Assembly (NCBI GenBank): GCA_035505375.1
Contig: DATJQV010000075.1
Span: 83,393-147,392, forward strand
Source of the DNA: a bacterium
Lineage (GTDB): Bacteria > Hydrothermota > Tepidihabitantia > Tepidihabitantales > Tepidihabitantaceae
DNA: 64,000 nt
Reading direction: 5' to 3'
Shown: one piece after another, positions 3,838 to 43,556 of the stretch
Position numbering within the stretch: position 1 is the first letter of the stretch
How the letters are laid out: the number at the start of each line of letters is the position of its first letter
Made by a program: the position numbers and the translations under genes
The notes under the pieces: generated by a model
The model's input: the letters and a program-made list of their open reading frames with translations, nothing else
Databases searched by the model: none
What the model was told of the DNA's origin: nothing

Positions 3838-3952
3838 CCCCCGATCTCTAGTCTCCAGTCCCTCGCCCCTCGTCCCTAATCCCCACCCCCAAGTCCTTCT
3901 TCCCCAACTTCTCGCTTCTCGCATCCAGCTTCTCGCTTCTGACTTCGTCTGC

Positions 3953-4140
3953 CTGCATTCTGGTCTCTGAATTCAGCTCTATCCGATGCCGTATCCGTGT
4001 TCATCAGTGTTCATCCGTGGTTCCCTATTCGAACTTCCCCGGCCGGGCATTCTGAATTCTGGACTCTGGACTCTGAATTCATCTCTATCCGGTGCCGTAT
4101 CCGTGTTCATCTGTGTTCATCTGTGGTTGATTCCCTCGGG
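3953..4140. repeat. MITE-like dispersed repeat, two tandem units; left inverted copy flanking the R-M island
   Basis: Units begin and end with CAGAGACCAGAATTCAGA-type inverted termini. The core ATCCGTGTTCATCNGTGTTCATCCGTGGTT recurs at 17641-17800 (inverted), 60465-60500 and elsewhere. Confidence 0.6.
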
Positions 4141-5706: not shown

Positions 5707-5858
5707 CTAGGCCTCCTGTAGTGACCTCTCATCGATGCGGCCCTTCGGAAGAAACCGAGTCATGGGCGGATTCTAGAGAGGGCTGGCGGGCGAGTCAAAT
5801 TCGAGGCCGCGCGTCAGGAATCGCCGGTTGCGTCGCCGGGGACTTGTCCGATGCCCAG

Positions 5859-8800
5859 CTAGGCTGCGTCCTCTTTGTAGGTCAGGCCGAAAACGGTGTC
5901 GGCCAGCCACTTGCGGAAGTCGTCGTTGTCGCTGTACTGCTTGAACAGCTCGGTGTGGTCGGACAGAAGCTCAACCAGCACCCGCTTCAGGGCTTTGTCG
6001 TGCTCGATGCGGGCGTTCTGCTTATCCGAGTTCTTCATTGCATTCTGATACGCCTTATCCGCGCTGACTTTGGCCGGAATCTCCTGTGCTATGACGGCCC
6101 GAATCTTGTCGGCGTCCTTCCAGTCGATGTTGCCGAAGAGGTCGTTGAATGCCTTGAGGATGTTACTCAACTTGTCCATCTCCGGTTCAGGCTTGTGTCC
6201 GCCCTGTTCGACTGGAACCGGGCCGACTTCGCCATCTTGGTCAGGCAGTGCAATGGTCCGCGTCGACTGCATCTCCGCCCTGTAGCTGTCCATATCAACG
6301 GCATCGAGGATACCCTTGGCCAGGTCTTCTTCCTCGGGCGCCGGCAGCTTCGGTATCAGGAAGTTCAGGAATATCGACAGCTTCTCCCACGAAGCATTGG
6401 TATAGGGTAGCACGGTTGCCAGAAATGCGTAGGTGCGGACGAAGCTTTTAGCTCCGCCCTTGAAGCCAACCTGCCCGTCCTCATCCAGGTTCAGCTTGTA
6501 CACGGCGACGCAGGCATCGAGAATCGGGTCGAGCCGGTCGCGCTCAGCCCCGCCAAGGTACAGCTTCACCAAGTCTTCAACCTGGCTCCAATCATAGACC
6601 TGAGCTGCATCCAGCTTTGCCTTCAGATCGTGCAGCTTGTTGGGATCGGTTTCCTCGCTCAGAATCGTCGTCCGGTAGTAGGGCGCGAAGTCGCGCTGGA
6701 TTCCCTCGGTGGTGTTTGTGAAGTCGAGCACAAACGTGTCGTACTTGCCGGGCATCGCCCGGTTCAAACGCGAGAGGGTCTGAACCGACTTCACGCCCGA
6801 CAGAATCTTGTCCACGTACATCGTGTGCAGCAGCGGCTCGTCATAGCCGGTCTGGAACTTCTCGGCGCAGACCAGTAACCGGTACGGGTCTTCGCGGAAC
6901 CGCTCGGCAATCTGACTTCCGGGGGATCCGTTCATGGATGTCTCGCTCAACTTCGCACCCTTGAATTCGTGCTCTCCCGAGAATGCGACCAGAGCCTTGA
7001 ACGGCAGTTTCATCTCGCTGATGTAGCCGGCTATTGCCTGGTAGTACTCGATCGCCCGCACGATGCTGCCCGTGACAACCATCCCCCTTGCCTGCCCGCT
7101 TATCTTGTGCCGTGAGTATACCTGGTTCAGGAAGTGGTCGACGATGATCTCGGCCTTCTTCTCGATGGCATGCTCGTGGGTTTCGATGTAGCGCCTGAGC
7201 TTCTTTGCGGCCTTCCTCACGTCGTACTCGGGGTCGTCCGGCACGGTCTTCACCAAACGGTAGTAGTTGTTCACCGGCGTGTAGCCCTTGAGCACGTCGA
7301 GGATGAAGCCCTCCTGTATCGCCTGCTTCATTGTGTAGCTGTGGAACGGCCGGTGCTTGACCTCCTCGCCCTCGGCGTATGGCACGCCAAACATCTCAAG
7401 AGTCTTATTCTTGGGCGTGGCCGTGAAGGCGAAGTAGCTGGCATTGGAGAGCATCCGGCGCGATTCGATGATGCGGTTGATGGTATCTTCGTACGTCTCC
7501 TCTTCCGGTTCCTCGCCCTCGGGCGAGAGCGCGATGTTCATCTTGGCCGAGGTCCGACCGCCCTGGCTGGAGTGGGCTTCATCAATGATGATGGCGAACC
7601 GGCGGTTGCGATGCTCGCTGCCGATTTCCTCCAACACGAACGGAAACTTCTGCACCGTGGTGATGATTATCTTCTTGCCCGATTCGATGAACTGGCGCAA
7701 CTGCTGCGAACCTTCGGTCACAGCGCCTACGATCGCAGACACCTGCGCGAACTGCCTTATCGTGTCGCGTATCTGCTTGTCGAGCAGACGGCGGTCAGTG
7801 ACCACGATGGTGGAGTCGAAAGCCGGCTTCCCCTCCCGCTCCAGGCCGACAAGTTGGTGGGCCAGCCAGGCAATCGAGTTCGACTTGCCCGAGCCCGCCG
7901 AATGCTGAACCAAGTAGCGCTTGCCGACGCTGTCCGCCAGAGCGGCCGCCAGCAGCTTGCGCACCACATCCAACTGGTGGTATCGCGGGAAGATCTGCTT
8001 GCGCTTCTTCCGGCCAGTCCTTTCATCTTTCTCCTCGACTACCTGTGCGTAGTTCTCAATGATGTTGGTCAGGCCCTCGCGCGTCAGCGCCTCTTCCCAG
8101 AGATAGGCAGTCTTAAGCCCGTTCGGGTTGGGCGGGTTGCCGGCTCCGTCGTTCCAGCCCTTGTTGAACGGGAGGAACCACGAGGCCTCGCCCTTCAGGT
8201 GCGTACACATCATCACCTGCTGGTCGTCCACCGCGAAGTGCACCAGACACCGGCTGAACTCAAACAGCAATTCATGCGGGTTCCGGTCGCGCTGGTACTG
8301 CACGACGGCATCGTCCACGGTCTGTTTGGTCAGGCTGTTCTTCAGCTCGAATGTCGCTATCGGCAGGCCATTGATGAACAGACATAGGTCGAGCGCGCGC
8401 TGCGTCTCGTCGCGGCTGTAGCGCAACTGGCGCGTGACGCTGAAGACATTGGACTCAAACAGCCTCACTGCCTCTCTGTTGCCCAGTGACGGAGTGCCGT
8501 AGAACAGGTTCACCGAAGCAGGACCGTGCTGGATGCCCTTGCGCAAGACATCGATGACGCCGCGCCTGGCGACCTCCCCGCGCAGCCGGTCAAGGAACTT
8601 CAGCCGGTTCGGGCCATCCTCAGCCAGACCCAGCGTCTCAACCGCCTTGGGCTGGGTTGCGTTCAGGAACTCCAGCAAGCGAACAAGGTCAACCGCGTGC
8701 TCGCGGTCATAGTGCGCAGGGTCGCCCTGCACATACCCAGTCCCGCCGATGGTGCCGACCTCGGTAGCAACCAGTTCCCCGCCGGCGTTATCCATGCGCC

Positions 8801-8861
8801 GGCCAGTCATGGCCGCGACAATCAGGCTCTCGAGGCCCTTTTCGCTGGTATCGGTAGGCAT
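5859..8861 (-). CDS. hsdR: type I restriction enzyme R subunit (HsdR), 1000 aa
   Basis: SF2 helicase motifs: Walker A SAGSGKSN and DEAH box IIIDEAHSSQ. The N-terminal nuclease region and the length are typical of HsdR. Confidence 0.9.
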   Translation of the reverse strand: MPTDTSEKGLESLIVAAMTGRRMDNAGGELVATEVGTIGGTGYVQGDPAHYDREHAVDLVRLLEFLNATQPKAVETLGLAEDGPNRLKFLDRLRGEVARRGVIDVLRKGIQHGPASVNLFYGTPSLGNREAVRLFESNVFSVTRQLRYSRDETQRALDLCLFINGLPIATFELKNSLTKQTVDDAVVQYQRDRNPHELLFEFSRCLVHFAVDDQQVMMCTHLKGEASWFLPFNKGWNDGAGNPPNPNGLKTAYLWEEALTREGLTNIIENYAQVVEEKDERTGRKKRKQIFPRYHQLDVVRKLLAAALADSVGKRYLVQHSAGSGKSNSIAWLAHQLVGLEREGKPAFDSTIVVTDRRLLDKQIRDTIRQFAQVSAIVGAVTEGSQQLRQFIESGKKIIITTVQKFPFVLEEIGSEHRNRRFAIIIDEAHSSQGGRTSAKMNIALSPEGEEPEEETYEDTINRIIESRRMLSNASYFAFTATPKNKTLEMFGVPYAEGEEVKHRPFHSYTMKQAIQEGFILDVLKGYTPVNNYYRLVKTVPDDPEYDVRKAAKKLRRYIETHEHAIEKKAEIIVDHFLNQVYSRHKISGQARGMVVTGSIVRAIEYYQAIAGYISEMKLPFKALVAFSGEHEFKGAKLSETSMNGSPGSQIAERFREDPYRLLVCAEKFQTGYDEPLLHTMYVDKILSGVKSVQTLSRLNRAMPGKYDTFVLDFTNTTEGIQRDFAPYYRTTILSEETDPNKLHDLKAKLDAAQVYDWSQVEDLVKLYLGGAERDRLDPILDACVAVYKLNLDEDGQVGFKGGAKSFVRTYAFLATVLPYTNASWEKLSIFLNFLIPKLPAPEEEDLAKGILDAVDMDSYRAEMQSTRTIALPDQDGEVGPVPVEQGGHKPEPEMDKLSNILKAFNDLFGNIDWKDADKIRAVIAQEIPAKVSADKAYQNAMKNSDKQNARIEHDKALKRVLVELLSDHTELFKQYSDNDDFRKWLADTVFGLTYKEDAA

Positions 8862-9161
8862 TAGTACCTCACCATCAAGTGACCATCAAGTAGAGCTAGT
8901 TCAAACCAATGCGTTGACTCATAGACACTCATGGCCATAGACATGCTTCTACAGACTGCCGCCGTCAGGATGAGTATCAAGTTCTGCGTCTGGCTTCGAC
9001 TAGAGTCGCCATCCACTAATCCGGCCTCGCTCAGTCGGGATTGCGTTACCGAATTGCATCCGAATTGCATCCAGAGCACTCGCGCTCGTGGATTGGCTAT
9101 ATGCCGTAACATCCTAAAGCAAGATGACTTACCGAATCGCGGCTGGGCCGCCGTACATGGG

Positions 9162-10819
9162 TCATTGCCGTCCGGATTGCTGTTCGATTGCATCTGGGTC
9201 CGGACCAATGAACCACCGTCCGGATCTGGTCTTGCCCCGGCAATGAACGCGGTTCTCGGCCTTCAACTCGCGGAGCAATGTCTGCATTTGGGCGCGCGAC
9301 AGGCTCGGGTCATTCAGCGCGCCGAGCAACTCGCGGAGCGGGCTGCCCTGCCCCTTGAAGGCCTCCAGATGCTGTAGTACCAGCTCCTTCAACCGCGCCC
9401 GGTCCAGTCCCCGACGCCTTGTGTAGCCGGCCTTATCACCCATTGCCGCGTAGAGCTTCCTTGCCAACAGGTACTTCATGCCCCGGGCGCGTCCTGTAGT
9501 CTCAACCAACCCCATCTCCCTGAGTCCGGCCAGGCGCGGTGCCAGGTTTGCGGGAACCACCTCGCCGCGGCGCAGAAGGTCGAGCACCAACAGATCCTCC
9601 GTCTGGAACGAACGCACACGTTCAGCGCCTACACGTTCCAGAAACCGTAGGAATCCCTCGTCCTGCACTGCACCCTGAAGCGTAAGCATGACCTGGTGCT
9701 CGTCGGTGCCGTTGAAGTCGGGCAGAGGCTTACTCTCGCGGATGGCAGTCTCGTACATAACGTTGGCCCTTGCCCAGAACGTTCGACCAGGCCGCACTTC
9801 GCGAGCACCTCGGCAATGCGTCGGTTGCGTGGACTCTGCCTGTAGAGGATGTTGTCGCGGGTGATGCCGCTGGGAAACCCGCCCGGGCTGACTACTTCCA
9901 GTCGCCGTGGGTATTGTCGCACAAACACCGACTCGGCCATTCGGTAGTCGCGATGACTCACGGCGTTTAGCAGTGCCTCGCGTACCACGCGCTCGCTGAA
10001 CGTCGGAATGTCCCAGATGAACAGCCCGTCTTGGAAGTGCTGGCTGTCGTTACGCAGGTTGATGGTCTTCCACAACTCGTCATCGAACGAGAAGAACCCC
10101 TGTCTGTATTCCTTCCTGTCCTGCGCAGGCCCGGTCGCATCGCTGGAACGATACTCGAAGACAATCTCCGCTTGAGCAAGGTCCCGCCCGAGGGCCATGC
10201 GAGTACCCAGCAGGATCAACGCCGCGTAGGTCACGCGTCCGTCCACCAGAAGCTCCGCGTCCGACAGAAGCTGCCCAGTGGACATGCCAAGCAGGTCGGC
10301 GCGTCCCGACTTCCGGTTCCACCGCTCGCGCAGTCGCTCGATGGCAACCTGGTCGAGCGCGTCCAGCGTCGCCCCGGGGCATATCTCTGCCGAGAAATCC
10401 GGCCCGGTCTCATCGAAGATGCGCCGCAGCATGTCTTCCGTCATGGCGGTCAGGCTATCACCTGAGCGCATCCAGTAGACACCGTCGTACCGCAACGGTA
10501 CGCCGATCGGCCGGGACGGTACATCGAACACGACCACCCGTCCGTGTGGGTGCTGAACCTCGACGCCGTCAATCCGCAGGTGCAGTATCTGAGTCAGGTC
10601 GCACCTGCGGTGCTCCAAGTCGCGGAAAGCATCAGTACCGACCACGCGGCGCGGCTTGAGGTTCGTAACACCAAGGATGAGCTTGCCGCCACGCTCGTTG
10701 GCCAGGGCGCAGCAGTACTTCCGCAGTTTCTCGATGTTGAAGTCGTGCTCGGCCTTCTTGAACTCAAGATGCTCGTCTTCCTCCGTCAGAAGCAACTCGT
10801 TCAACTGCTCAGCGGTCAT
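9162..10819 (-). pseudogene. RecG-like/Schlafen AlbA_2 (divergent AAA) + HATPase-type putative transcriptional regulator, split by a frameshift near 9765-9778
   Basis: ORF 9629-10819 encodes the AlbA_2 N-domain and ATPase-like region and runs out of frame after ...CGLVERSGQG. ORF 9162-9797 (GTG start) continues the same protein family (ANVMYETAIRESKPLPDFNGTD...) in another frame. The junction lies in a GGG/CCC run. Confidence 0.65.
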
Positions 10820-10915
10820 CTACTTCATCTCCGCATACAGCCGCCCGTTCGCAGTTCTCCGGATTCACCAACGTCTCCGCATCCTCGTGGAGGATGTCCC
10901 CGCTAGTGAACTCCA

Positions 10916-12367
10916 TCACTCCTCGCCCTCCGCATCATGGCTTGCGAGAGCTTCCTCGTTCGCCTCCTCCAATTCCTCCGGCGCTTCCGCCTCCGGTTCC
11001 TCAACTTCCTCCGTCTCATCCGGCAGATTCGTGGCGGCTTCGCGCACGTCCAGTTTGCCTGTCACCACGTCCGCCACAAGCCGAGTCCGGTACTCGCGTA
11101 GAAGGAGCACCTCAGCCTCCACTCGGGCTATTGCGGCATCCAGCGCAGCGGTCTGTGCCGCTATGTGCTCAAGCAAGCTCTTCTGTTCCGCAATCCCCGG
11201 CAGCAGAATCGGAAACGCGCGCAAGGTTGTGCTGTTTGTAGAGGCGAGATTCGTGGTCTGCTTAGCTGTCAGTTGGAAGTAGGCACGCCCATGCATGGAC
11301 ACCATGAGGCCTTCAAGGAACTCGGGAATCATGATGTCCTGTCTGCAACGGACGGCGAAAATGTGATTCTGGTGCAGGCAGTTCGGAATCTCGTCATGCC
11401 ACACACAACCGCGGCCGAGCTCGTCGATGTCTCCTCCCTCGGTCATCAGAACGTCTCCAGCACGCAGCGTCGCGCCGGATGCCTCTTTCACAGGGACGCT
11501 GATGTGCTTGATATGTCCGAGGTCAAGGCGGCCGGCTTGAACGTTAGCCACGCGGAGGTAGGGTCGTGACTCAATGGTGACTCCTTCGTAGCGCTTCCCA
11601 AGTGTTAGTCCGGTCTGCACGGTCGCCGCGTCTTTGAGCCGAGCAATTCTCCAATGCTCAGGTATGCCTCCCAGCCAAGCGACCCCGGACGGTTTGTACT
11701 TTGGATACGGCTTCCCAGTGCGGACGTCAATCTGACCGGTCACGGCCTGGTGGATAATGGCTTGCTTCTGCTCGTTCAGCCGCGCAATCAGCCTCTGCTT
11801 CGCCCGGATGTACTTCCGAATCCGCCGGTCAACGTGGTCAAGGTAGCGCACGATGGCGGATTGCTCCGCCAGAGGCGGTTTGCACGATACGATCATCCTG
11901 AAGTGCTCGGGCCTGAGGCTCCACATATCTGACGTGATGCCGTAGGACCAACGTTCCGCCTCCTTGGCGAAAACCGGAGTTCGCATGAGGTAGTGGAAAT
12001 AGCGCGGACTCGATCCCTCGCGCGGGCGCTGCACGACGTATGCAGGGCTAACGATTCCACGTAGGTCGGACACTCCGACCGCACCTTGCCATGCCCGCAT
12101 CTTGTTGTAAGCGATGTCTCCGGGACGAACGAGCTTGTAGGCGGACTTGTCCAGATTCGAGCCGTCCTTCTTCGAGCTATCTGCCAGCAATGCTTGCTGA
12201 CGAATCACGCCCCTCGTGATAGTCACGGACAGCATCGGTTCGTCTGGATGGTCGCGCTCTTTGACTTCGGCGAAGAGGGCGCGGTTAGGCAACACATCCC
12301 AATGCTCCGGCACGTCTCCCAGCCACGGCACGCCGGAAGGCTTGTAGGATGGGTAGGGTGTTTTCAA
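10916..12367 (-). CDS. hsdS: type I restriction-modification specificity subunit (HsdS), two target-recognition domains
   Basis: Duplicated YPSYKPSGVPWLG / YPKYKPSGVAWLG motifs with conserved central and C-terminal coiled-coil spacers typical of HsdS. Confidence 0.85.
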   Translation of the reverse strand: MKTPYPSYKPSGVPWLGDVPEHWDVLPNRALFAEVKERDHPDEPMLSVTITRGVIRQQALLADSSKKDGSNLDKSAYKLVRPGDIAYNKMRAWQGAVGVSDLRGIVSPAYVVQRPREGSSPRYFHYLMRTPVFAKEAERWSYGITSDMWSLRPEHFRMIVSCKPPLAEQSAIVRYLDHVDRRIRKYIRAKQRLIARLNEQKQAIIHQAVTGQIDVRTGKPYPKYKPSGVAWLGGIPEHWRIARLKDAATVQTGLTLGKRYEGVTIESRPYLRVANVQAGRLDLGHIKHISVPVKEASGATLRAGDVLMTEGGDIDELGRGCVWHDEIPNCLHQNHIFAVRCRQDIMIPEFLEGLMVSMHGRAYFQLTAKQTTNLASTNSTTLRAFPILLPGIAEQKSLLEHIAAQTAALDAAIARVEAEVLLLREYRTRLVADVVTGKLDVREAATNLPDETEEVEEPEAEAPEELEEANEEALASHDAEGEE

Positions 12368-12373
12368 GCCTGT

Positions 12374-13312
12374 TTATTTCGCTATCGGAACGCCATACTG
12401 AAGAAGCAGGCTTTCAAGGTGCCGACCATCGATGAGCCTGACCATTTTCATCTCGGGGCGGTTGGCCTCCTTGATGGCCCCCGCGCTGAACTCCCCAGAC
12501 GTAACAACCATGCACTCGGCCGGGCCTGCGGCCCCTCTGATCTTCTGTATATCTGGAGCCTGCACTTTGGCCTTCCAGTGCTTCACCTGCACTTTGACGG
12601 CGACCGTGCCGCCCGAATCCAGCGGACGGTGTCCCTCGACATCTACTCCGCGGTCGTGCGTCGCTGGGGTCACGACGACGCGATCGTAGCCAACTGCCGA
12701 AAGGAGATCTCCCACCAGTTGTTCAAGTTGCGTTGGCGACAGGCTGCGCAATCCGGCCGGAGCCATTGGTGTGGCAGGAGCGCCTGCCTGTGAAGCTGGG
12801 CTGGGCGTGGACATGCCGACCAAACCCACTGCTCCCCCGGCAAGACGCACGAACCGGGGTTTCTCGCCGCGCGCGACGCGGTCTCGGGTGTCCTGATAGA
12901 CGCGCCCAAGAACCATGTTCTCAAACTTCCCGCTCCGCGAGGAGAACAGCTTCTGGCTGGTGATCTCTGCAGCCAACTCCTTCGCCGTCATAGGATGTCC
13001 AACGGACCGCAACACATGTTCTACGGCACCGAGTATCTTCATCGGCCCGCGTGGCACGGTCGTGACCGCCTCCCTGTCGGCAGGCTGCTCTGACGCCAGC
13101 CTGAACAAGCCGCCTCGTGAGCCGTGCCGAAAGCGCGAGGCGGAACCATTGCTCTTCGTGTCCGCGCATAGCCTCGACCCCACGACATGCCCGAAGTCCT
13201 TGGCGGTTGGCAGAAAGAGCTTCTGCGACACAATCCTCTTGGCGATCTCTCGGTAGTGCAGCTCGACTCGCGCTTGGGACAGCACTTCGTGGGCCGCGTC
13301 TAGAATCTCCAT
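12374..13312 (-). CDS. mrr: Mrr-like type IV restriction endonuclease with two N-terminal winged-helix (HARE-HTH / Mrr_N) domains and a C-terminal Mrr_cat PD-(D/E)xK domain
   Basis: Two repeats of a ~90-aa wHTH module. The C-terminal region has the D...(E/D)xK signature (DRGVDVEG...VKVQVKHW). Embedded between hsdS and hsdM, a known arrangement. Confidence 0.65.
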   Translation of the reverse strand: MEILDAAHEVLSQARVELHYREIAKRIVSQKLFLPTAKDFGHVVGSRLCADTKSNGSASRFRHGSRGGLFRLASEQPADREAVTTVPRGPMKILGAVEHVLRSVGHPMTAKELAAEITSQKLFSSRSGKFENMVLGRVYQDTRDRVARGEKPRFVRLAGGAVGLVGMSTPSPASQAGAPATPMAPAGLRSLSPTQLEQLVGDLLSAVGYDRVVVTPATHDRGVDVEGHRPLDSGGTVAVKVQVKHWKAKVQAPDIQKIRGAAGPAECMVVTSGEFSAGAIKEANRPEMKMVRLIDGRHLESLLLQYGVPIAK

Positions 13313-13429
13313 TGCGTTGCCTCCTTCGTCATCTCCGCAATCTCTTCCTCCGCTTTCGGGCTTCGTCTAGCTCATGGGGCGGCGGGCCAGCGTACATTGA
13401 GACCGTGCCTGCAAAGAACCGGCGCGGCG

Positions 13430-15556
13430 TCACTCCAACGCCTCCTTGAGCAATCCTTCGGTCTCCTTCTCCAGTGCCGCGATGTCGGCCTTGATCTCTT
13501 CAAGAGTCCGAAGCGGCTGGGGCTTGTAGAAGTAGCGGTTGAAGCTGATTTCGTAGCCAATCTTGGTCTTGGATTCGTCTATCCAGGCGTCCTTGGCATA
13601 AGGCAGGACCTGGCGTTGGATGAAGGCTTCGATGCCACCGTCTTCAAGCAAAGGCACTTGCTCGGTGTCGCGTAGCTCCGTATCCGGTTCGTACTCGACG
13701 GCATACTGCCTGCCGACAACCATGGCCTCGAACAGACCGCGCAGAGGATCCACCTTCGTCTTGAAGAGCGGGTACGCCTTCTTGACGACAGGCACCCCGT
13801 TCTCATCGCGCTCAGCCAGGTTGTTCTTGAGCAGGTTCTCTCGCTTCACGGGGAAGTAGAAATCTTCCTTCAGTGCTGCCTTGCGTGCTTCTGTCAGGAA
13901 GGCATTGAAGTCCATGTGCGGCCCTGAGCCGAGTGATTCGGCCAGCTTGTCGGCAAAGGCAGGCAGATCCTCGTCCTTGGCCTTGGCGCAGGCAAACTTG
14001 AGCCGCGCTCGGCTGGCGTGGTTGAACTCGACCTTGAGCCTCAGCGGACGCTCGACCGTGACCTTCCAGTAGCCGAAGGCCTCGTTCGGAAAGACCTTGG
14101 ACTGCTCGGTCTCTTTGAACTCAAGGAAGGTGTCGGCGATCCGCCTGATGTCAGCATCCGAGAGCCGGCAGTTCTTCTTGCCGAGGTTCTTTCGCAGAGG
14201 CTCGAACCACTGGGTCGCATCGATAAGCTGAACCTTGCCTTTGCGATGCTCGGGTTTGCGGTTGGAGAGGAGCCAGATGTAAGTGGCGATACCGGTGTTG
14301 TAGAAGATGTTGAGTGGGAGCGCGATTATCGCTTCCAGCCAGTCGTTCTCGATTATCCAACGCCGGATGTTACTCTCGCCCTGTCCCGCGTCGCCGGTGA
14401 AGAGCGACGAACCGTTATGGACCTCGGCGATGCGGCTGCCGAGCCTGGTGCCGACCTTCATCTTGCTGAGCATATTGGCAAGGAACATCATCTGGCCATC
14501 GCTGGAACGGGTCACGAGCGAATACTCCGGGTCGCCTGCGTGAGTGATGATGAATCGCGGGTCCTTGATGCTGTCCTTGCCGCCCATCTTCTCCATGTCG
14601 TTCTTCCAGCTCTTGCCGTAGGGCGGGTTGGAGAGCATGAAATCGAACTTCAGGCTGGCAAACCCGTCATGGGAAAGCGTGGACCCAAAGACGAAGTTGT
14701 CGGCCTCTTCACCCTCGCCCTTGAGCACCAGGTCTGCCTTGCTGATGGCATAGGTCTCGGGTTCGACTTCCTGACCGTAGAGGTGAATCGAGGGGTCCTT
14801 GCCGTGGTCCTTGGCCATATCGAGCAGACGTTGCTCGGACACGGTTAGCATCCCACCGGTCCCGCACGCGCCATCGTACACGAGGTACGCGCCGGACACG
14901 ACCTTGTCCGCCACCGGCTTAAGCACAAGGTCGGCCATGAGCGTTACAATGTCGCGGGGCGTGAAGTGCTCGCCTGCTTCTTCGTTGTTCTCTTCGTTGA
15001 ACCGGCGGATGAGTTCCTCGAAGATGGTGCCCATGCCGTGGTTGTCGAGTCCGGGCAGGCGCTCAGAGCCGTCACTGTTCAGCGCAGGCTTGGGGCTGAG
15101 GTTGATGGACGGGTCGAGGAACTTCTCAATCAGGCCGCCGAGGATGTCGGCTTCCACCAGAGTCGGCACCTGGTTGCGGAACTTGAACTTCTCGATTATC
15201 TCCTGGACGTTAGGCGAGAAGCCGTCGAGGTACGCCTCGAAGTCGGCCTTGAGTGTCTGCGCCCGGCCACGGGAGCGCAAGTCGCGAAGCATGAACGCAG
15301 AGGCGTTGTAGAACGACTGCCCGGCTGCCTGTCGCAGCGGCGCTTCCTGGCTGGAGATCTTCGACTTGTCGAGGCGATCCTTCATGTCGAGCACGGCCTT
15401 CTTGGTTGGCTCCAGCACGGCATCCAGCCGCCTGATGACCGTCATCGGCAGGATGACGTCGCGGTACTTGCCGCGTTTGTAATAGTCGCGGAGCACGTCA
15501 TCGGCGATGCCCCAGATGAAGTTGGCAATCCAGTCCAGTTGTGTCGGTTCCATCAC
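13430..15556 (-). CDS. hsdM: type I restriction-modification DNA methyltransferase subunit (HsdM, N6-adenine)
   Basis: HsdM N-terminal domain (MMEPTQLDWIANFIWGIADDVLRD...). SAM-binding region and catalytic NPPYG motif (LSNPPYGKSW). Confidence 0.9.
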   Translation of the reverse strand: MMEPTQLDWIANFIWGIADDVLRDYYKRGKYRDVILPMTVIRRLDAVLEPTKKAVLDMKDRLDKSKISSQEAPLRQAAGQSFYNASAFMLRDLRSRGRAQTLKADFEAYLDGFSPNVQEIIEKFKFRNQVPTLVEADILGGLIEKFLDPSINLSPKPALNSDGSERLPGLDNHGMGTIFEELIRRFNEENNEEAGEHFTPRDIVTLMADLVLKPVADKVVSGAYLVYDGACGTGGMLTVSEQRLLDMAKDHGKDPSIHLYGQEVEPETYAISKADLVLKGEGEEADNFVFGSTLSHDGFASLKFDFMLSNPPYGKSWKNDMEKMGGKDSIKDPRFIITHAGDPEYSLVTRSSDGQMMFLANMLSKMKVGTRLGSRIAEVHNGSSLFTGDAGQGESNIRRWIIENDWLEAIIALPLNIFYNTGIATYIWLLSNRKPEHRKGKVQLIDATQWFEPLRKNLGKKNCRLSDADIRRIADTFLEFKETEQSKVFPNEAFGYWKVTVERPLRLKVEFNHASRARLKFACAKAKDEDLPAFADKLAESLGSGPHMDFNAFLTEARKAALKEDFYFPVKRENLLKNNLAERDENGVPVVKKAYPLFKTKVDPLRGLFEAMVVGRQYAVEYEPDTELRDTEQVPLLEDGGIEAFIQRQVLPYAKDAWIDESKTKIGYEISFNRYFYKPQPLRTLEEIKADIAALEKETEGLLKEALE

Positions 15557-15715
15557 GAACCCTCTTTCTTACCGATAGGCCAGTCAATCACGCGGAGGTT
15601 ATAGCCGGAAAGCTCGCCGCAGTCAGGCGCGTGCCGTAGAACCTAGCAGTCGTCAGTGCCGCCGGGAGCGGCAGGGCTGTCGCTCTGTGGCAGATTCGTC
15701 GATTAGGCGTCCTCG

Positions 15716-16168
15716 CTAGCGACGTACCACCGGGAGGACAAGCGGCGGAAGGCCCATGCGCACGACAGTGCTTTGTACGTACTCGCGGAAGTATGGCCAA
15801 GTGTTCAGGGGGAGGTTGTTCGTGCAGAAGATCTGGAAGTAGTCCTTGGTCATCGGCTTTGCGACTCGGTATACGACCTCGAATGTGCAGCTGATTCGCA
15901 GTAGAGGTATCTTGGGTTCATCCTTGTACGCCGCCATGAAAACGCAGGTCTGAATAACCTTGCATGTTGCCTCGCCCTCCATCTGGAATGAGACTTTGTC
16001 TTCGATCCCCAGGTCCATCTCACGTTTGAAGTCGACTTTGTCTACGAGAAGCTCTGCGGATAGGGCCCGAGCCGCGATGTTCAGCAGATCGAGCCCCCGA
16101 ATGAACTCGGCATACTCCCTGGGGCTTACTTTCGGGCGTGCGGGCCGCTTGACCGCGGTTGCACTCAT
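15716..16168 (-). CDS. hypothetical protein, translationally coupled downstream of hicB
   Basis: Its start ATG overlaps the hicB stop by 4 nt (ATGA), with an AGGAAGG RBS. 150 aa with no recognisable family. Confidence 0.45.
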   Translation of the reverse strand: MSATAVKRPARPKVSPREYAEFIRGLDLLNIAARALSAELLVDKVDFKREMDLGIEDKVSFQMEGEATCKVIQTCVFMAAYKDEPKIPLLRISCTFEVVYRVAKPMTKDYFQIFCTNNLPLNTWPYFREYVQSTVVRMGLPPLVLPVVRR

Positions 16169-16725
16169 ATTGCCGCCTTCCTGTGGAAACTTATGTTGCC
16201 GGGGTCAGGGAGTGCGAACTCGCTGCCCCCGCATGATACACCGGCCAAACCCCTGAGCTGCTTGCGGGCGTTCCATGGATCACGAAGCACTATCTCTTCG
16301 AGGTCATCTCTCAAACGGTCAGCGGTGGACAGAGTTCTGGACAGACGAACGTCAAGCGCGTGCGTCACTACGCCCTGAGCGAGTACGACAGCCACAAACT
16401 GGTTTAGACTCGTTCCTTGCTCCTCTGCCTGTCTCGCAAGCTGGCGATGCAGAGCGGCCGGCAGGCGAACGACGAACTTGCCCGAGAATTCCCTTGCTTC
16501 CTCGGGCAGTGGTATCTCGATGTTTGACTGGTAGGCTTCCTCCAGCCAGAGTTCTCGCGCTTCCTTGATGTTGGCCATTGCCTCCTCTAGTGTTTCGCCT
16601 TGAGTCATACAGCCGGGCAGGTCCGGCACTGACACGAAGTACCCGCCTTCCTCCTGCTCATGCACCTGCACGGGATACTTCAGGTTCACGTAGTAGGCCA
16701 AGTCCTTCTCATTCCTGCGGTTCAT
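16165..16725 (-). CDS. hicB: HicB-family antitoxin with C-terminal extension
   Basis: N-terminal HicB/UPF0150 domain (YPVQVHEQEEGGYFVSVPDLPGCMTQGETLEEAMANIKEA). This is followed by an RHH-like DNA-binding segment (GKFVVRLPAALHRQLARQAEEQGTSLNQFV). Confidence 0.7.
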   Translation of the reverse strand: MNRRNEKDLAYYVNLKYPVQVHEQEEGGYFVSVPDLPGCMTQGETLEEAMANIKEARELWLEEAYQSNIEIPLPEEAREFSGKFVVRLPAALHRQLARQAEEQGTSLNQFVAVVLAQGVVTHALDVRLSRTLSTADRLRDDLEEIVLRDPWNARKQLRGLAGVSCGGSEFALPDPGNISFHRKAAI

Positions 16726-16957
16726 CTGTTGCCTCCAGGTCCAGCGTCGTGATAATGTCCTTTAAGTACGATTTCTTGTAGGATTTGCTGTGTGTGGCCA
16801 AGACGAGCCGGCGACCATTATCGCCCCAAATCTCGTGACTGCCTTTTGTTCTTCGCAGAGTCCATCCAAAGTGTTTGAGTATCGCTCGTACGTCTTGGCA
16901 TGCCATCTCGGCAGGCCTCGAAAGAAGTCGAGCGACGAGCTTCTTGACGCTGGACAA
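16709..16957 (-). CDS. hicA: HicA-family mRNA interferase toxin
   Basis: 82 aa with the conserved HicA core ...RTKGSHEIW... Overlaps hicB by 17 nt. Confidence 0.8.
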   Translation of the reverse strand: MSSVKKLVARLLSRPAEMACQDVRAILKHFGWTLRRTKGSHEIWGDNGRRLVLATHSKSYKKSYLKDIITTLDLEATDEPQE

Positions 16958-17289
16958 CGTCCCATGATACTACCCTTAGTATTAGATGTCAACATCGGAG
17001 TTGTGGATTCGTGTGGGCCCGCCATGAAATGGCCGGCTAGCCAGGTCCGCTGGTTTGGACACCTTCGCTGATCACGTGGAGTGTACCAGAGTGGTGTAGT
17101 GCCTTAGCCCGCAAGTTGAGCGGAAGCATTGGGCCTGGGGGCTAGCCTCTTCGGAACTCCAGGCAGGACATCTTGCCCAATGCTATGCGCCTCCGCCGGC
17201 CGCTGCGGAAGCACGATGGTCGACGTTGGCGGCTCTCGGTCACCCCCCCCTGCCCGAAGCCTGCAACCTGCGTTTGAGGTTTGCATTTC

Positions 17290-17530
17290 GCAGTTATCCA
17301 CGCGCTTCCGGTACAACAGCAATTATTAGCAAAAGAACCTGTTGCTGCTGTTGGGATGTGGATAATGTGGATAACTCACAATTTCTACCATTAGTAGTAT
17401 CAACCACTGTACACTACCACTAGTGGTTGATTATCCACATAGTTATCCACATCCTGTCCACATTCATCCACCATTTGGCCATTCCGGCCAGATACCACCT
17501 ATTGTATCCACCGAGTTATCCACACCACTA
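17290..17530. promoter_or_regulatory. cluster of DnaA boxes in a locally AT-rich segment (candidate replication origin or DnaA-titration/regulatory locus)
   Basis: Five perfect consensus boxes: TGTGGATAA x2 (17357-17365, 17366-17374) and TTATCCACA x3 (17431-17439, 17443-17451, 17516-17524). At least four 1-2-mismatch boxes (17294, 17454, 17464, 17504). The surrounding ~200 bp is markedly AT-rich relative to the window. A 9-bp inverted repeat TCAACCACT...AGTGGTTGA lies at 17399-17430. Confidence 0.6.
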
Positions 17531-17640
17531 CAGATAGGTGTTGACATTGGAGTCCTGTCCGGCATTGTTGGTTAATGACCGATGAGAAATCCGTTTCAGA
17601 CACCGGGCTATTCCCCGGGCAGTCCCGGGGCCTGCCCCCT

Positions 17641-17800
17641 AGCGAAGGCATGGGAGAAATCAGAATTCAGAGACCAGAAACCAGAATTCAGAATGCCCGG
17701 CCGGGGAAGTTCGAATAGGAAACCACGGATGGACACAGATGAACACGGATACGGCATCGGATAGAGCTGAATTCAGAGACCAGAAACCAGAATTCAGATA
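17641..17800. repeat. MITE-like dispersed repeat, inverted copy (right flank of island)
   Basis: The reverse complement matches 3953-4070 at ~95% over ~115 bp, including both CAGAGACCAGAATTCAGA termini. Confidence 0.6.
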
Positions 17801-17826
17801 CGCTGACGAAGAGCCAGGATGGCGGT

Positions 17827-18429
17827 TCAGCGCCTGCGTCGGCGCCGATCGCGAGCGACGAAGTCCGAGCCTGAGCCGGTGTGGCCGGGTTTGTCGTCGT
17901 CGGTGATGAATCCGATACGTTTCTTCCTTGGCGCAGGCGGCAGCATGAGCTGTTTGATAGTGGCAAAGACCACCTGGAAGTTCCGGTCGTGCGTGGCCAG
18001 CTTGCGTTCAAGTTCGGCGAGCTTGATGGCGAGCTGTCGCTGGTCGGCCAGCATGCGACGCATTCGTATGAACGCCCTCACCACAAAGACGCTGACATCG
18101 ACCGCCCGTTTGGATCGCAGGACGCTCGCGAGCATGACAGTTCCATGTTCCGTGAATGCGTAGGGGCGACTTGACGAGTGCCTGAGCGCCACCAACCGGT
18201 CGCATTTTGCGACCAGTTCATCCTTCTCATCGAGTGTCAACTCGAACATGAAACCTTCGGGGAATCGTTCCCGGTTGCGCCGGACTTGTTCCTTCAGTCG
18301 GCGGGTCGTGACGCCGTAGACTTCGGCCAGGTCGACGTCCAGCATGACACGTTCGCCACGTATCTCCAGAATGGCACTGTCTATTCGCTCGGCGGGGATG
18401 AGGTATCCGGAGTCTTTGGGCGCGGTCAC
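17827..18429 (-). CDS. ORF6N (KilA-N-like) DNA-binding domain protein
   Basis: The N-terminal ~110 aa matches the ORF6N/antirepressor-like fold (LEIRGERVMLDVDLAEVYGVTTRRLKEQVRRNRERFPEGFMFELT). Typical of phage/mobile-element cargo. Confidence 0.65.
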   Translation of the reverse strand: MTAPKDSGYLIPAERIDSAILEIRGERVMLDVDLAEVYGVTTRRLKEQVRRNRERFPEGFMFELTLDEKDELVAKCDRLVALRHSSSRPYAFTEHGTVMLASVLRSKRAVDVSVFVVRAFIRMRRMLADQRQLAIKLAELERKLATHDRNFQVVFATIKQLMLPPAPRKKRIGFITDDDKPGHTGSGSDFVARDRRRRRR

Positions 18430-18570
18430 GGGCCTAGGATACCGGCGAAGGGTGCTGAGTCAAGGCGCGGCGCGGGAATTCCCGGCGACGCAATAGGCGA
18501 TTCCCGCAGAAGGGGGTCCAGGATTCAAGGATCCGAGGAATCTAGTGGCGGGTGGCGGGCACCGGATGGT

Positions 18571-18636
18571 TCAGAAGTCAGAAACCAAAACGCGAGACGG
18601 GGAACAATCCAGAATCCAGAAACCAGAATTCAGAGT
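18571..18636. repeat. partial copy of MITE-like repeat family (terminal module)
   Basis: CAGAAGTCAGAAACC...CCAGAATCCAGAAACCAGAATTCAGAG, near-identical to segments at 20861-20935 and 21056-21100. Confidence 0.5.
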
Positions 18637-18717
18637 TGCCCAGGAAAGGAATCGAGAGATCGAGGGAGAGGGTGCGCGGCTTGCCATCGGAGAGAATCTG
18701 GCTATCATCTGGCCAGA

Positions 18718-19029
18718 ATGAAGTACCGGGTCGCATTCGCGCCCGAAGCCCTCGATGATTACCGCCGCCTCTCGGCCCGAACCAGGGCCGAAGTCAGGGA
18801 TGCCATCAACCGGCACCTGCTGCACCAGCCGACCCGGTTGAGCCGAAGCAGTATCAAGCGGCTGCGTGGGACCCGGAAGCCGCAATACCGCCTGCGCGTC
18901 GGGGACGTGCGCGTCTTCTACGACGTGCGAGAGGATGAGGTGGTGGTGCTGGCTGTTGTTGAGAAATCGCGCGCTGCGGAATGGCTTGAGAAGACTGGAG
19001 AATTCGATGAAGAGAGTAGCGCTGGCTGA
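18718..19029 (+). CDS. RelE/ParE-family type II toxin
   Basis: 103 aa: MKYRVAFAPEALDDYRRL...YRLRVGDVRVFYDVREDEVVVLAVVEKS. Typical RelE/ParE fold signature. Confidence 0.75.
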   Translation: MKYRVAFAPEALDDYRRLSARTRAEVRDAINRHLLHQPTRLSRSSIKRLRGTRKPQYRLRVGDVRVFYDVREDEVVVLAVVEKSRAAEWLEKTGEFDEESSAG

Positions 19030-19330
19030 GGTAAAGGACCACCTTTCCGAGTATCTGAACGAGGCGGCAGAGGAGGAAGTCGTCATCACCCGACATGGCC
19101 GTCCGGCCGGTGTGCTCATCGGCTTCGCCGGCGAGGACGACTGGTTCGACTACCGGCTGGAGAACGATCCGCGGTTTGTCGCACGGATCGCGAGGGCGCG
19201 GGGTAGTGCCCGGGCCGGGAAGGCCATTCCGTGGGAGGACGTGCAAGCGGGCGCGGAGTCGGCCTCGGGCGGGTTCAGCGTTTCAGACCGGCCGGCCACA
19301 CGTTCACCCAGGCGGCGAAGCCGCACTTAG
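19007..19330 (+). CDS. Phd/YefM-family antitoxin (toxin-first arrangement, overlaps toxin by 23 nt)
   Basis: MKRVALAEVKDHLSEYLNEAAEEEVVITRHGRPAGVLIGF... The internal ATG is in the same frame as the listed ORF 18866-19330. Confidence 0.6.
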   Translation: MKRVALAEVKDHLSEYLNEAAEEEVVITRHGRPAGVLIGFAGEDDWFDYRLENDPRFVARIARARGSARAGKAIPWEDVQAGAESASGGFSVSDRPATRSPRRRSRT

Positions 19331-19570
19331 CAGCCGGGCGCTGGCCGCGAGACACTGTCCTTCGTACGTCGTCCATCGTTCTTCGTCCTGAGTCTACTGT
19401 CCACAGTCCATAGTCCGTCCGTCTCCTCGTCCTTCGTCTGAGCTCTCTGCGTCATCTGCGCAATCTGCGGTTAGTCTTCTCCGGCCTGGCGGTTAATCCA
19501 TTTTCGATTGACGATTGCCGATTTCAGATTGCCGGACCGGTATCCGAAGCGGAGAGCGGTCGGCGGACTG

Positions 19571-19700
19571 CTTGACTGATAACTTGACTAATACACGCGG
19601 CTGCGCCGCGAGTTTCCAGTGACCAGTTTGCAGGTGGCGGCTGCGGACCGCGACTTGACCAATAACTTGACTAATACTTGACTGATTATTAGACTTGTCC
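19571..19700 (+). promoter_or_regulatory. iteron-like direct repeats (CTTGACTAATAC / CTTGACTGATAA) immediately upstream of fic
   Basis: Six or more copies of TTGACT(A/G)ATA(A/C) in two blocks (19571-19594, 19653-19700). A second copy of the block lies at 21186-21222. Confidence 0.4.
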
Positions 19701-19701
19701 G

Positions 19702-20709
19702 ATGACATTTGAGCCGAAGTTCACGGTTTCGGCCCGACTGCTGACGCTGGTCGAGGAGGTTGCGGCGCTACGCCAGCAGGTGGTCTCTTCGGCCGTGCAG
19801 GTGGCGTGGATTCCCCGGCTGCAGCAGGAGGCACGGGTGCGCAATACGCACAGCTCGACCGCCATCGAGGGCAATCCGTTGACCCAGGCCCAGGTCCGGG
19901 CGCTGGCTGAGGGCCGCGAGGTCCCGGCGATCGCGGACCGGTCCCGGCAGGAGGTGCTGAACTACTTCGCCGGGCTGCGGTTGATCGAGACGCACGCGAA
20001 GAAGAAGACGGTCACGCGCCGAGACGTGCTGCGGTTGCACGCGATTGCGGCGCACGGCGTGATGGACCAGGGACAATCGGGCGAGTTCCGCCGGATCCAG
20101 GTCTGGGTCGGCGGGCACGTGCCGCCTCCGCCGGAGCGGGTGGAGGAACTCATGGCCGCGCTCCTGGATTGGTGGAACGGGCCGGCGCGTAAGCTGTCTT
20201 CGGTCATTTCCTCCGCGGTCCTTCACTATCGGTTCGAGGAGATCCATCCGTTCGGCGACGGCAACGGCCGGGTCGGACGGCTGCTGGCTTTGTGGGAACT
20301 CTACCGGCGGGGTTTCGACACCCACCATATCTTCGCGGTTGACGAGTACTACTGGCATGACCGTCCGCGCTACTATCGGCAGTTGGCGGACGTGCGCAAG
20401 CACGGCGGCAATCTGACCGGCTGGCTTGAGTACACGGCCGAAGGTCTGCTTAAGGCGCTCGGCAATGCGCGGGACCGGATTCAGGCGATCTCGGCTGAGT
20501 CCGGGAGCGAGCCGATTCTGCTCCGTCCGAGGCAGGAGCAGTTGCTGCGCATGTTGCGCGACGAGGGACAGCTGGCCCCGCGCCGGATATGGGAAGGGCT
20601 GGGCGTCTCCCGGCAGGGCGCGATGGACCTGCTGCGACCGCTGCTTGCGGCCGGGCTGGTGAAGCGCATCGGCACGAGGAAGTCGGGCAAGTACACGCTG
20701 GCGCAGTAG
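19702..20709 (+). CDS. fic: Fic-family protein (AMPylation/adenylyltransferase domain) with C-terminal winged-helix
   Basis: Canonical Fic motif HPFGDGNGRVGR. C-terminal HTH-like region. Confidence 0.85.
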   Translation: MTFEPKFTVSARLLTLVEEVAALRQQVVSSAVQVAWIPRLQQEARVRNTHSSTAIEGNPLTQAQVRALAEGREVPAIADRSRQEVLNYFAGLRLIETHAKKKTVTRRDVLRLHAIAAHGVMDQGQSGEFRRIQVWVGGHVPPPPERVEELMAALLDWWNGPARKLSSVISSAVLHYRFEEIHPFGDGNGRVGRLLALWELYRRGFDTHHIFAVDEYYWHDRPRYYRQLADVRKHGGNLTGWLEYTAEGLLKALGNARDRIQAISAESGSEPILLRPRQEQLLRMLRDEGQLAPRRIWEGLGVSRQGAMDLLRPLLAAGLVKRIGTRKSGKYTLAQ

Positions 20710-20767
20710 GCGCGTCGCCGAAACGCGGGCACGGGACAGGTATTCACCACCAAGACGCGAAGGATCG

Positions 20768-21100
20768 GACAATTCAGAAACCAGAGACAAGAATGCGGGA
20801 GTGGTAGAAGAGGGGTCGAGGAGTCGAGGAGTCGAGGGATCCAGTGGCGGGCACCCGATAGTCCAGAAATCAGAAACCAAAACGCGAGACGGGGAACAAT
20901 CCAGAATTCAGAATCCAGAGACCAGAATTCAGAAGTGGTAGAAGAGGGGTCGGGGGTTCAAGTGGTCTAGTGGTCCAGTGGATGAGTTCGGATCAGGCAG
21001 GCGTCGGAAGCGGGAGAGAAGAAGGGATCGAGGGATAGAGTGGCGGCCACCGGACAACTCAGAAGTCAGAATTCAGAGACCAGAAACCAGAATTCAGAAT
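20768..21100. repeat. cluster of three MITE-like repeat fragments with associated CGAGGGAT..AGTGGCGG leader blocks
   Basis: Copies at 20768-20800, 20861-20935 and 21056-21100. Each is preceded by GTCGAGGGAT(C/A)(C/G)AGTGGCGG(G/C)CACC, as is 18541-18570. Confidence 0.5.
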
Positions 21101-21185
21101 TGCGGGCGGAACTGCAAGACATCCGAACGCAGTAGTCCACTGCCTTGGCGAGCTTGGAGGTTGTTCTGGCTGCGGACGGCGGCCT

Positions 21186-21222
21186 GCTTGACTGATAACT
21201 TGACTAATACTTGACTAATACA
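21186..21222 (+). promoter_or_regulatory. second copy of CTTGACTAATAC direct-repeat block
   Basis: CTTGACTGATAACTTGACTAATACTTGACTAATAC. Preceded by the GGCTGCGGAC motif also seen at 19639. Confidence 0.4.
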
Positions 21223-21670
21223 AACAGGGGTCCAGGATTCGAGGTTGGCCGCGGCGGCCCCTGTCGGACAGCGCTGCCCGGCAATCGGTGTAATCTGTGA
21301 AATCGGTGGATGTCCCTTCCTTGTCCGCCCGTCTCCTCGTCCCCCGTCCTTCGTCTGAGCTATCTGCGACATCTGCGTCATCTGCGGTTTACCCACTCTG
21401 TGCCCTTGTGTTGGACTCCCATGCCGGATTCCGGCGACTGTCTCCCCAGACCCGAGAGTGAAGGCACGAAAGAACGCATCAAACCCGAAGTCCGAAGCTC
21501 GAAGCCCGATTCAAGTGCGAAATCGGGCCTTTTGCACTTCGGGTTTCAATCGTCATTCTACCTTCGAGCTTCGAGCTTGGTACAAAAGTGTCTCCCCGGC
21601 CATCTATTTCGAATTCAGGGTGTCTGCGGCGGCTTGACTGAGGTGGAGAGGCCGGTAGGCTTTAAGGAGT

Positions 21671-41078: not shown

Positions 41079-41124
41079 CGGGCGTGTAGACAGCAGACAG
41101 TAGACAGGATACAGCACAACGGTC

Positions 41125-43517: not shown

Positions 43518-43556
43518 GCAGACAGCATTCAGTAGGCAGTAGACAGGATACAGGTC

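Follow-up and report, generated by a model that had tools for sequence, protein, structure and literature searches.

The element considered here is a cluster of binding sites (boxes) for the initiator protein DnaA in a bacterial contig (GenBank DATJQV010000075.1, positions 83,393 to 147,392), and the whole analysed stretch of 64,000 nucleotides (64 kb) is referred to below as the window. The cluster contains five perfect TTATCCACA DnaA boxes inside 168 bp and lies in a mosaic accessory island. It belongs to a known class, that of DnaA-box clusters outside a dnaA-linked origin, and its unusual feature is the residence in accessory DNA. The reading which is tentatively favoured, though at somewhat less than an even chance, is that of an acquired stand-alone DnaA-binding array serving as a DnaA sink or an architectural site or persisting as a relic of a mobile element. 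Judged from the sequence, the cluster is more likely not the ancestral chromosomal origin of its lineage, since its position argues against such a role.

The array is composed of the following parts (window coordinates):

17294 to 17302, + strand: leftmost DnaA box, TTATCCACG, one mismatch, its CCAC end towards the left spacer
17325 to 17342, + strand: six NAN triplets (AAT TAT TAG CAA AAG AAC) within the left spacer, a candidate DnaA-trio array
17357 to 17365 and 17366 to 17374, − strand: two perfect boxes, directly abutting, which read TGTGGATAATGTGGATAA on the + strand
17375 to 17430: central AT-rich spacer of 56 bp between the converging arrays, GC 0.39
17431 to 17439, 17443 to 17451, and 17516 to 17524, + strand: perfect TTATCCACA boxes
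17454 to 17462, 17464 to 17472, and 17504 to 17512, + strand: weak boxes with two mismatches each
17431 to 17472, + strand: phased head-to-tail array of four boxes, perfect at 17431 and 17443 and then with two mismatches at 17454 and 17464
17504 to 17524, + strand: box pair with a 3-bp gap, GTATCCACC (two mismatches) followed by a perfect TTATCCACA

By chance 0.15 perfect boxes per window are expected, and none of 100 dinucleotide-preserving shuffles of the whole 64 kb reached five. Nine boxes with at most two mismatches span 231 bp; the 1-kb bin of the cluster holds ten boxes of this quality, and every other bin of the window holds three at most. Inside the four-box array the start-to-start spacing is 12, 11, and 10 bp, and a spacer of 31 bp separates this array from the rightmost weak-plus-perfect pair. 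An earlier note on this DNA had reported five perfect boxes, two of them abutting at 17357–17374, and these were found exactly at the positions given; the degenerate boxes that it had mentioned are also present, namely, four with one or two mismatches and two TCAACCACT sites with three mismatches, which make up an inverted repeat in the central spacer. The cluster is non-coding. The same note had considered that the boxes might be part of an element repeated at many loci, but in the window the cluster is single-copy and merely abuts repeats resembling miniature inverted-repeat transposable elements (MITEs), so this explanation was rejected.

The GC content of the cluster stretch is 0.38–0.44 as compared with about 0.62 for the window, and its 100-bp GC is the lowest among the window's intergenic regions. 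The AT-rich island described in the earlier note is therefore real, but only in relative terms and partly due to the composition of the boxes themselves, which are 33% GC and contribute part of the AT-richness. The central spacer reaches the 99.9th percentile of duplex instability in the window, and the overlapping 40-mer 17362–17401, about 4 standard deviations (SD) from the mean, is the second least stable in the window, practically tying with the least stable one (19660–19699). Mostly inside this spacer there is a perfect inverted repeat (17399–17408 and 17422–17431, with a 13-nt loop), which had been noted before as 9 bp long and is in fact 10 bp; as single-stranded DNA it folds into a hairpin of −9.4 kcal/mol (z = −3.2). 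The central spacer can be regarded as a candidate site of unwinding or bending, and it lies on the TTAT, that is, the non-canonical, side of both arrays.

The canonical side is occupied by the left spacer (17303–17356), which is 54 bp long with GC 0.46 and stands at the 96.7th instability percentile. Its run of NAN triplets is correctly oriented and 18 bp away from the abutting pair, and about 0.35% of 40-mers drawn at random from the window contain a NAN run of that length. The basal unwinding system (BUS), a model of Richardson, Pelliciari, and Murray, has been defined by a DnaA box, a spacer of at most 16 bp, and at least three correctly oriented NAN trios (PMC8287927). The box-to-trio orientation rule was checked on Escherichia coli oriC, where TAT TAG GAT stands 10 bp from R1 (TGTGGATAA); with the same script R1 was recovered under the strict BUS definition and none of the nine boxes of the cluster was. 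The array is thus a near miss on the BUS sequence test, with oriC-like topology. No site of the integration host factor (IHF) consensus WATCAANNNNTTR was found anywhere in the window, and direct repeats in 16700–17900 were limited to the boxes and the MITE arms, with no iterons.

The genes on both sides of the island were compared with those of relatives. The genes for a peptidyl-prolyl isomerase (PPIase), SurA, unk456, and a nitroreductase are contiguous in two WOR-3 metagenome-assembled genomes (MAGs), L008 (UBA2258) and L010 (Zod_Metabat.816), at about 70% protein identity, and the gap between unk456 and the nitroreductase gene amounts there to 107 and 213 bp, respectively, without DnaA boxes. 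About 17.8 kb lie between these two genes in the window, and homology to the relatives ends at 3837 and restarts near 21630, at the nitroreductase promoter. Because the flanking genes are adjacent and free of boxes in two relatives, the segment from 3838 to about 21630 is read as an insertion containing the array. In a third relative (L007) an insertion sequence (IS) fragment and small open reading frames (ORFs) resembling toxin-antitoxin (TA) genes occupy the same junction. Together these comparisons are strong evidence, at the sequence level, that the box array sits in an insertion at a site which gathers mobile DNA. No box cluster was found near the orthologue in L005–L012; hints of boxes in relatives (L008 at 774, L016 at 13243, L007 at 1663) were dismissed as chance or MITE-borne single boxes. 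MITE-like repeats of L008 do carry single TTATCCACA sites. Conspecific contigs of three other samples are 100% identical to the window and thus carry no signal of presence/absence or of selection.

The island and its contents are as follows:

3838 to about 21630: mosaic accessory island of about 17.8 kb, GC 0.55–0.61, between unk456 and the nitroreductase gene
3953 to 4096, − strand: left arm of a 144-nt inverted repeat, 90% complementary to the right arm
5859 to 15556, − strand: type I restriction-modification (R-M) operon with Mrr and an AlbA_2/Schlafen gene
5859 to 8861, − strand: HsdR
9629 to 10819, − strand: AlbA_2
10916 to 12367, − strand: HsdS
12374 to 13312, − strand: Mrr
13430 to 15556, − strand: HsdM
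15716 to 16957, − strand: hicA-hicB-unk150 operon (HicA toxin, HicB antitoxin, conserved 150-aa protein), the nearest genes on the left
16964 to 16992, − strand: sigma-70-like hicAB promoter (TTGACA, 17 nt, TATCAT; 11 of 12 consensus positions)
17647 to 17790, + strand: MITE-like copy forming the right arm of the 144-nt inverted repeat and starting 117 bp past the cluster
17827 to 18429, − strand: ORF6N anti-repressor-like gene, matching phage anti-repressors, 3' end towards the cluster
about 18718 to 19330, + strand: ParE/Phd pair
19702 to 20709, + strand: Fic gene

The flanks have a GC content of 0.62–0.68 compared with 0.55–0.61 in the island, and MITE-like repeats separate the ORF6N gene, the ParE/Phd pair, and Fic (17827–20709). 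The earlier description of the surroundings as R-M, TA, and MITE genes without dnaA or dnaN was borne out, the set comprising type I R-M, Mrr, HicAB, ParE/Phd, Fic, and MITE-like repeats. In the whole window no dnaA, dnaN, tRNA, or Rfam family was detected, and a tblastn search across it for remnants of dnaA or dnaN gave noise only. Among the island ORFs scanned against Pfam, PHROGs, and NCBIfam there was no Rep, primase, replicative helicase, Par, integrase, or relaxase. Phage structural or packaging genes are likewise absent from the window, the sole phage-type gene being the ORF6N anti-repressor-like one, and the 1.1-kb intergenic region had no match in 72,556 plasmids and 50,697 phages by blastn in distant mode.

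The components of the island have separate histories elsewhere. HsdM homologues more than 70% identical were found in Deltaproteobacteria, Acidobacteria, Chloroflexi, Patescibacteria, and methanogenic archaea, and HsdR is 93.7% identical in the WOR-3 relative L180, as against about 78% for its transglutaminase core genes. In L180 the R-M operon (10001–19114; also in L181) occupies a different locus with neither hicAB nor boxes. As far as such homology can tell, the type I R-M operon is horizontally mobile. A homologous hicA-hicB-unk150 module (51% identity; L176–L179, about 5257–7283) sits near an ORF6N gene, again without boxes, in a TA-rich island with AbiEii, PIN, MazF, and RelB. No relatives of unk150 and ORF6N were found among viral contigs. 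By these sequence comparisons the R-M cassette and the HicAB module are not accompanied by the array where they occur elsewhere, and since both modules occur without boxes, modules and boxes do not appear to represent the arrival of one replicon.

The 144-nt inverted repeat encloses a 13.55-kb cassette with the R-M operon, hicAB, and the box cluster. Two independent assemblies, L173 and L002, join unk456 to the cluster side of this cassette, in an apparently inverted arrangement, and a third one (L170/L172) matches the window exactly. This points either to inversion isomers that coexist in the population or to chimeric assemblies caused by the repeat.

Several further features of the island and its genes were recorded. 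AT-rich TTGACTGATAACTTGACTAATAC-type repeats at 19556–19594, 19639–19677, and 21172–21210 lie on both sides of Fic and hold the window's least stable 40-mer mentioned above, and a second repeat family (19413–19472 and 21323–21389) is also found on both sides of this gene; the Fic-flanking repeats may be cassette boundaries or operator sites. The island edges (3838–4560 and 20760–21110) consist of long non-coding DNA with short dispersed repeats of the CTTCTCGC... and GAATTCAGAGACCAGAAACCAGAATTCAGA families, and additional copies of the GAATTCAGAGACCAGAAACCAGAATTCAGA family occur at about 18600, 32700, and 60400. The unk150 protein matches only function-unknown PHROGs and, judged by its place in the operon, may be a third component of the HicAB system. 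In the second strain L001 (98.6% nucleotide identity) the ORF6N region 17815–18471 differs by nine substitutions and the 200-aa protein is identical, which is consistent with purifying selection on this anti-repressor-like gene.

Strand asymmetry was analysed on the 64-kb window only, which is too short to decide a switch. Because raw skew is confounded by the − strand R-M operon, GC skew at third codon positions (GC3 skew) was calculated per gene and showed a strong coding-strand term of −0.09 to −0.12. The term for the side of the cluster was not significant, being +0.034 ± 0.021 with all genes included and −0.026 ± 0.030 when restricted to core genes; + strand core genes on the left have a skew of −0.034, which is no more negative than that of + strand genes on the right (−0.066). 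Octamers resembling FtsK-orienting polar sequences (KOPS) and skewed 7-mers in the window were either too few or dominated by coding-strand bias. On the right, at 38241–51922, there are five successive large paralogues of 750–945 aa on the + strand, each ending in a FlgD_ig or type IX secretion system (T9SS)-type sorting domain, and other genes with such tails are found at 21671, 55217, 56297, and 60798. These sorting-domain genes have a strongly negative GC3 skew, and this is what keeps the cumulative skew flat to the right of 38 kb.

To what extent the box architecture is specific for origins can be seen from its occurrence elsewhere. The pattern of TGTGGATAATGTGGATAA, 41–71 nt, and TTATCCACA was searched and gave at least 120 metagenome-contig matches; the 121 listed loci, one of them viral, form 38 sequence groups, none related to the window. 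A dnaA or dnaN gene is present in the sequence covered for 25 of these 121 loci, corresponding to about 12 of the 38 groups. Among the matches listed, two groups with 51 contigs have the cluster 280–400 bp upstream of hpf, for example, L149 (cluster 6474–6554, hpf 6962–7495) and L062 (cluster 3863–3951, hpf 4230–4766). Two other groups (for example, L118 and L113) carry the cluster about 125 bp upstream of a gene of DnaD/DnaB_2 type, which in one group is followed by a DnaI-like loader gene; L052 resembles these groups by eye only. The hpf and dnaD clusters contain three to five perfect boxes, as in the window, and the dnaA-linked clusters of these low-GC genomes are mostly richer, with up to 17. 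The contigs with hpf and dnaD clusters come from gut and other metagenomes and are low-GC, apparently Firmicutes, which suggests widespread DnaA regulon or titration sites at hpf and dnaD-type genes. Much larger arrays were also encountered: the L078 region 5877–5967 has an 18-box perfect array beside dnaG (7033–9102), and L114 and L160 have 26 perfect boxes per 600 bp. In all three, units of four boxes (abutting pair, opposite box, and fourth box) are iterated four to six times with an unusually regular period of roughly 60–70 bp, at a genome GC of about 0.46–0.49.

The viral match (L168) is a fragment of a genuine tailed phage that encodes a large terminase, a portal protein, and a head protease, and in it nine perfect boxes (about 2367–2458) are situated about 2 kb upstream of terL (4446–6059). 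When the abutting-pair and 3-bp-spacer sub-motifs were searched in IMG/VR, each gave at least 120 matches. Of the 237 listed viral loci two have a dnaA or dnaN homologue nearby, and at least five perfect boxes within 300 bp are present in 20, including two high-GC phages with boxes phased at 11–12 bp. In L378 the array (3205–3460) lies between terS (2695–3189) and terL (3539–4945), so that in two cases (L168 and L378) the phage clusters adjoin terminase rather than replication genes. Dense phage clusters with five to nine perfect boxes per 300 bp, often with 11–12-bp phasing, were also seen in L332, L187, L254, L404, L360, and L367. In the literature searched for phage DnaA-box clusters only one array, that of the injection stop signal (iss) of phage T5, was found. 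An exact 24-mer common to the cluster and the viral locus L394 was set aside as coincidence (GC 0.38, flanks unrelated). As many groups occur at non-dnaA loci and in phages, the architecture is not diagnostic of an origin, and the textbook oriC signature invoked earlier for the cluster loses its diagnostic value on this ground: among the groups listed, about 12 of 38 are next to dnaA or dnaN, others being at hpf, at dnaD/dnaI-like genes, and in phages.

Against this background two kinds of origin have to be weighed. It is unlikely, though the anatomy invites it, that the cluster is the chromosome's own oriC, unlinked to dnaA, with defence cassettes accumulated alongside; in this case DnaA would fill both arrays and unwind the left spacer or the central one. 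Nine boxes in two opposed phased arrays over 231 bp are indeed similar to E. coli oriC (PMC5742627), and origins apart from dnaA are well known, for example, in E. coli at 42 kb (PMC3245932), so the separation has precedent. The run of six NAN triplets 18 bp from a box pair, the highly unstable intergenic DNA at the cluster, and the nearby minimum of raw skew point in the same direction, as does the L173/L002 isomer, where the cluster would lie within a few hundred bp of core unk456 and the island DNA would be all on one side. Origins normally relocate by inversions and translocations. Here, as the flanking genes of two relatives are adjacent without boxes, the origin would have had to insert with accessory genes only; moreover, its leftward fork would meet the SurA operon head-on, and there is no origin-associated gene within 17 kb on the left or 46 kb on the right. 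The strict BUS test failed, the cluster resides in an apparently inverting cassette, and the strand-corrected skew shows no significant switch in the window, left core genes having the same skew sign as right genes of the same strand. The displaced chromosomal origin put forward in the earlier note is accordingly weakened by the insertion that splits the gene block of two relatives and by the lack of a significant corrected switch. The integrated replicon with R-M and TA cargo, also put forward there, retains the acquired nature of the DNA and loses its support in rep, par, and integrase genes, which are missing, and in the R-M and HicAB modules, which exist without boxes elsewhere. A related and equally improbable possibility is that the cluster acts, or acted until recently, as a DnaA-dependent origin belonging to an acquired element such as the remnant of a phage, plasmid, or island; it would then be either an ectopic second origin, which could over-replicate the island locally, or an origin relic. 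This possibility is in line with the acquired DNA, with the adjacent phage-type ORF6N anti-repressor and several addiction modules, with the AT-rich hairpin-forming core, and with phage contigs that have equally dense and similarly phased clusters. To our knowledge no natural replicon relies on DnaA boxes alone, and the cluster has no rep, primase, helicase, par, integrase, or relaxase gene, no iterons beyond the boxes, no blastn similarity to plasmids or phages, and neighbour cassettes that do not co-travel with the boxes; the phage clusters in question stand near terminase instead of replication genes, and the T5 array has been argued to be non-replicative. In particular, a working DnaA-only origin on acquired, repeat-bounded (invertible) defence DNA, whether an ectopic second or a relocated sole origin, is given a rather low probability.

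Still less probable, and in our estimation very unlikely, is DnaA-dependent transcriptional control of hicAB or of an unannotated transcript, which would tie expression to the cell's replication or DnaA status, by analogy with hpf, dnaD/dnaI, sda, ywlC, and yydA. The hpf and dnaD-like genes do have clusters of the same architecture and similar box number 125–400 bp upstream, B. subtilis DnaA-box clusters (DBCs) regulate their neighbours (PMC3245932), and hicAB is the sole operon reading away from the cluster. But a near-consensus promoter belonging to hicAB itself is located about 300 bp away from the closest good DnaA box, separated from it by GC-rich DNA, in which RNA folding between hicA and the cluster revealed no structure excess (z = −0.6 and −0.2); promoter-like sites were found neither within the cluster nor just right of it, where the MITE and the 3' end of the ORF6N gene are located. 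With the promoter so far away and homologous hicAB-unk150 modules devoid of boxes, the cluster as a hicAB operator was rejected as the main explanation.

The stand-alone DnaA-binding array remains the preferred explanation, and its non-origin character is derived from the mosaic foreign insertion, the lack of replicon and origin-neighbour genes, the BUS failure, the lack of a demonstrable skew switch, and the non-origin and phage counterparts. According to this model the array of about 240 bp would have entered the chromosome as one piece of a horizontally acquired mosaic (R-M, TA, Fic, and anti-repressor). [quoted passage not shown] The present net effect would probably be that DnaA is held, the array being a sink or an architectural site like datA, the B. 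subtilis DBCs, or T5 iss, and possibly a remnant left by a phage or another mobile element. The box array, its phasing, its place in the island, the lack of replicon genes, and its independence of the adjoining cassettes are observed, and we infer DnaA occupancy, sink function, and the absence of origin firing. Of the three possibilities of the earlier note, a DnaA titration or reactivation locus is the best functional fit, although the defining features of datA and of DnaA-reactivating sequences (DARS) are lacking.

A number of points weigh against this explanation. The anatomy is equally that of a compact origin, with E. coli oriC-like topology in about 230 bp, six correctly oriented NAN triplets just 2 bp past the published spacer limit, and an AT-rich core at the 99.9th instability percentile, and the raw cumulative GC skew has its minimum at 13.5–18 kb of the window. 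The search for dnaA and rival box clusters spans the 64-kb window only, and two relatives do not strictly fix the direction of change. Any benefit that a DnaA sink brings to island or host would be hypothetical, and five perfect boxes speak against a long-decayed fossil.

If the array is a sink or relic, horizontally transferred islands can import high-affinity initiator-binding sites, and box counts in AT-rich patches can mis-assign origins in MAGs of poorly known phyla; should it fire as an origin, it would represent one of the rare natural cases of origin capture or relocation in bacteria. In the comparison set, moreover, phage genomes frequently carry dense DnaA-box arrays, a finding worth a separate study.

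Among known systems, the E. coli-type oriC shares with the cluster consensus boxes in two opposed arrays, with gaps of 1–3 bp here and 2–4 bp in E. coli, AT-rich DNA by the boxes, and a trio-like run on the correct strand and side, and the sizes are close (about 230 bp versus 245 bp for the minimal E. coli oriC). Unlike oriC, the cluster has a non-conserved position, lies in an insertion absent from relatives, and lacks linked dnaA/dnaN or origin-neighbour genes; its trio run stands 18 bp off the box, where the limit is 16, there is no IHF-type site, the AT content is highest in the segment separating the arrays, which is on the TTAT side of each, and the window shows no strand-asymmetry switch of significance. 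Origins of the P1 oriR, pSC101, and RK2 oriV type have several tandem DnaA boxes flanking an AT-rich segment on a mobile element and are not known without iterons and an adjacent rep gene. In contrast to these, the cluster has neither iterons nor a rep gene.

The non-origin sites of E. coli offer a further comparison. Both the DOR of oriC and datA have closely spaced boxes of the same orientation, 2–4 bp apart, that support cooperative head-to-tail DnaA oligomers, and datA, with five high-affinity boxes, is a non-origin cluster, as are the DARS (PMC5742627). With DARS1 and DARS2 the cluster shares a probable non-origin status and boxes in opposite orientations, but the DARS core consists of three close boxes with box I reversed at fixed spacing and a head-to-head contact (PMC5742627), while the opposed arrays here are 56 bp apart, with two to four boxes per side and more boxes in total. 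In datA the essential boxes run one way and an IHF site is needed (PMC5742627), in contrast to the mixed orientation and missing IHF consensus of the cluster. B. subtilis has six intergenic DBCs, which regulate neighbour genes and restrain initiation (PMC3245932). Unlike a cluster in accessory, apparently invertible DNA, datA and the DBCs belong to the conserved core genome and lie near oriC; common to all is a non-coding location away from dnaA with about five high-affinity boxes.

The phage counterpart is found in T5-like phages, where eight boxes, paired with 3-bp gaps and placed on inverted repeats, were described as “reminiscent of oriC” and argued to be non-replicative (bioRxiv 10.1101/866236). 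The cluster differs from T5 iss in having no phage structural genes, terminal repeat, or terminase nearby, and in orientation, the T5 pairs all facing one way, and there is no sequence similarity between the two beyond the boxes. What they share is a mobile-element-borne, non-coding array of about eight boxes with inverted repeats and a spacer of about 40–60 bp, and the pairs of the window at 17431/17443 and 17504/17516, with 3-bp gaps and 61 bp start to start, have their likeness in the T5 iss pairs at 9437/9449 and 9498/9510.

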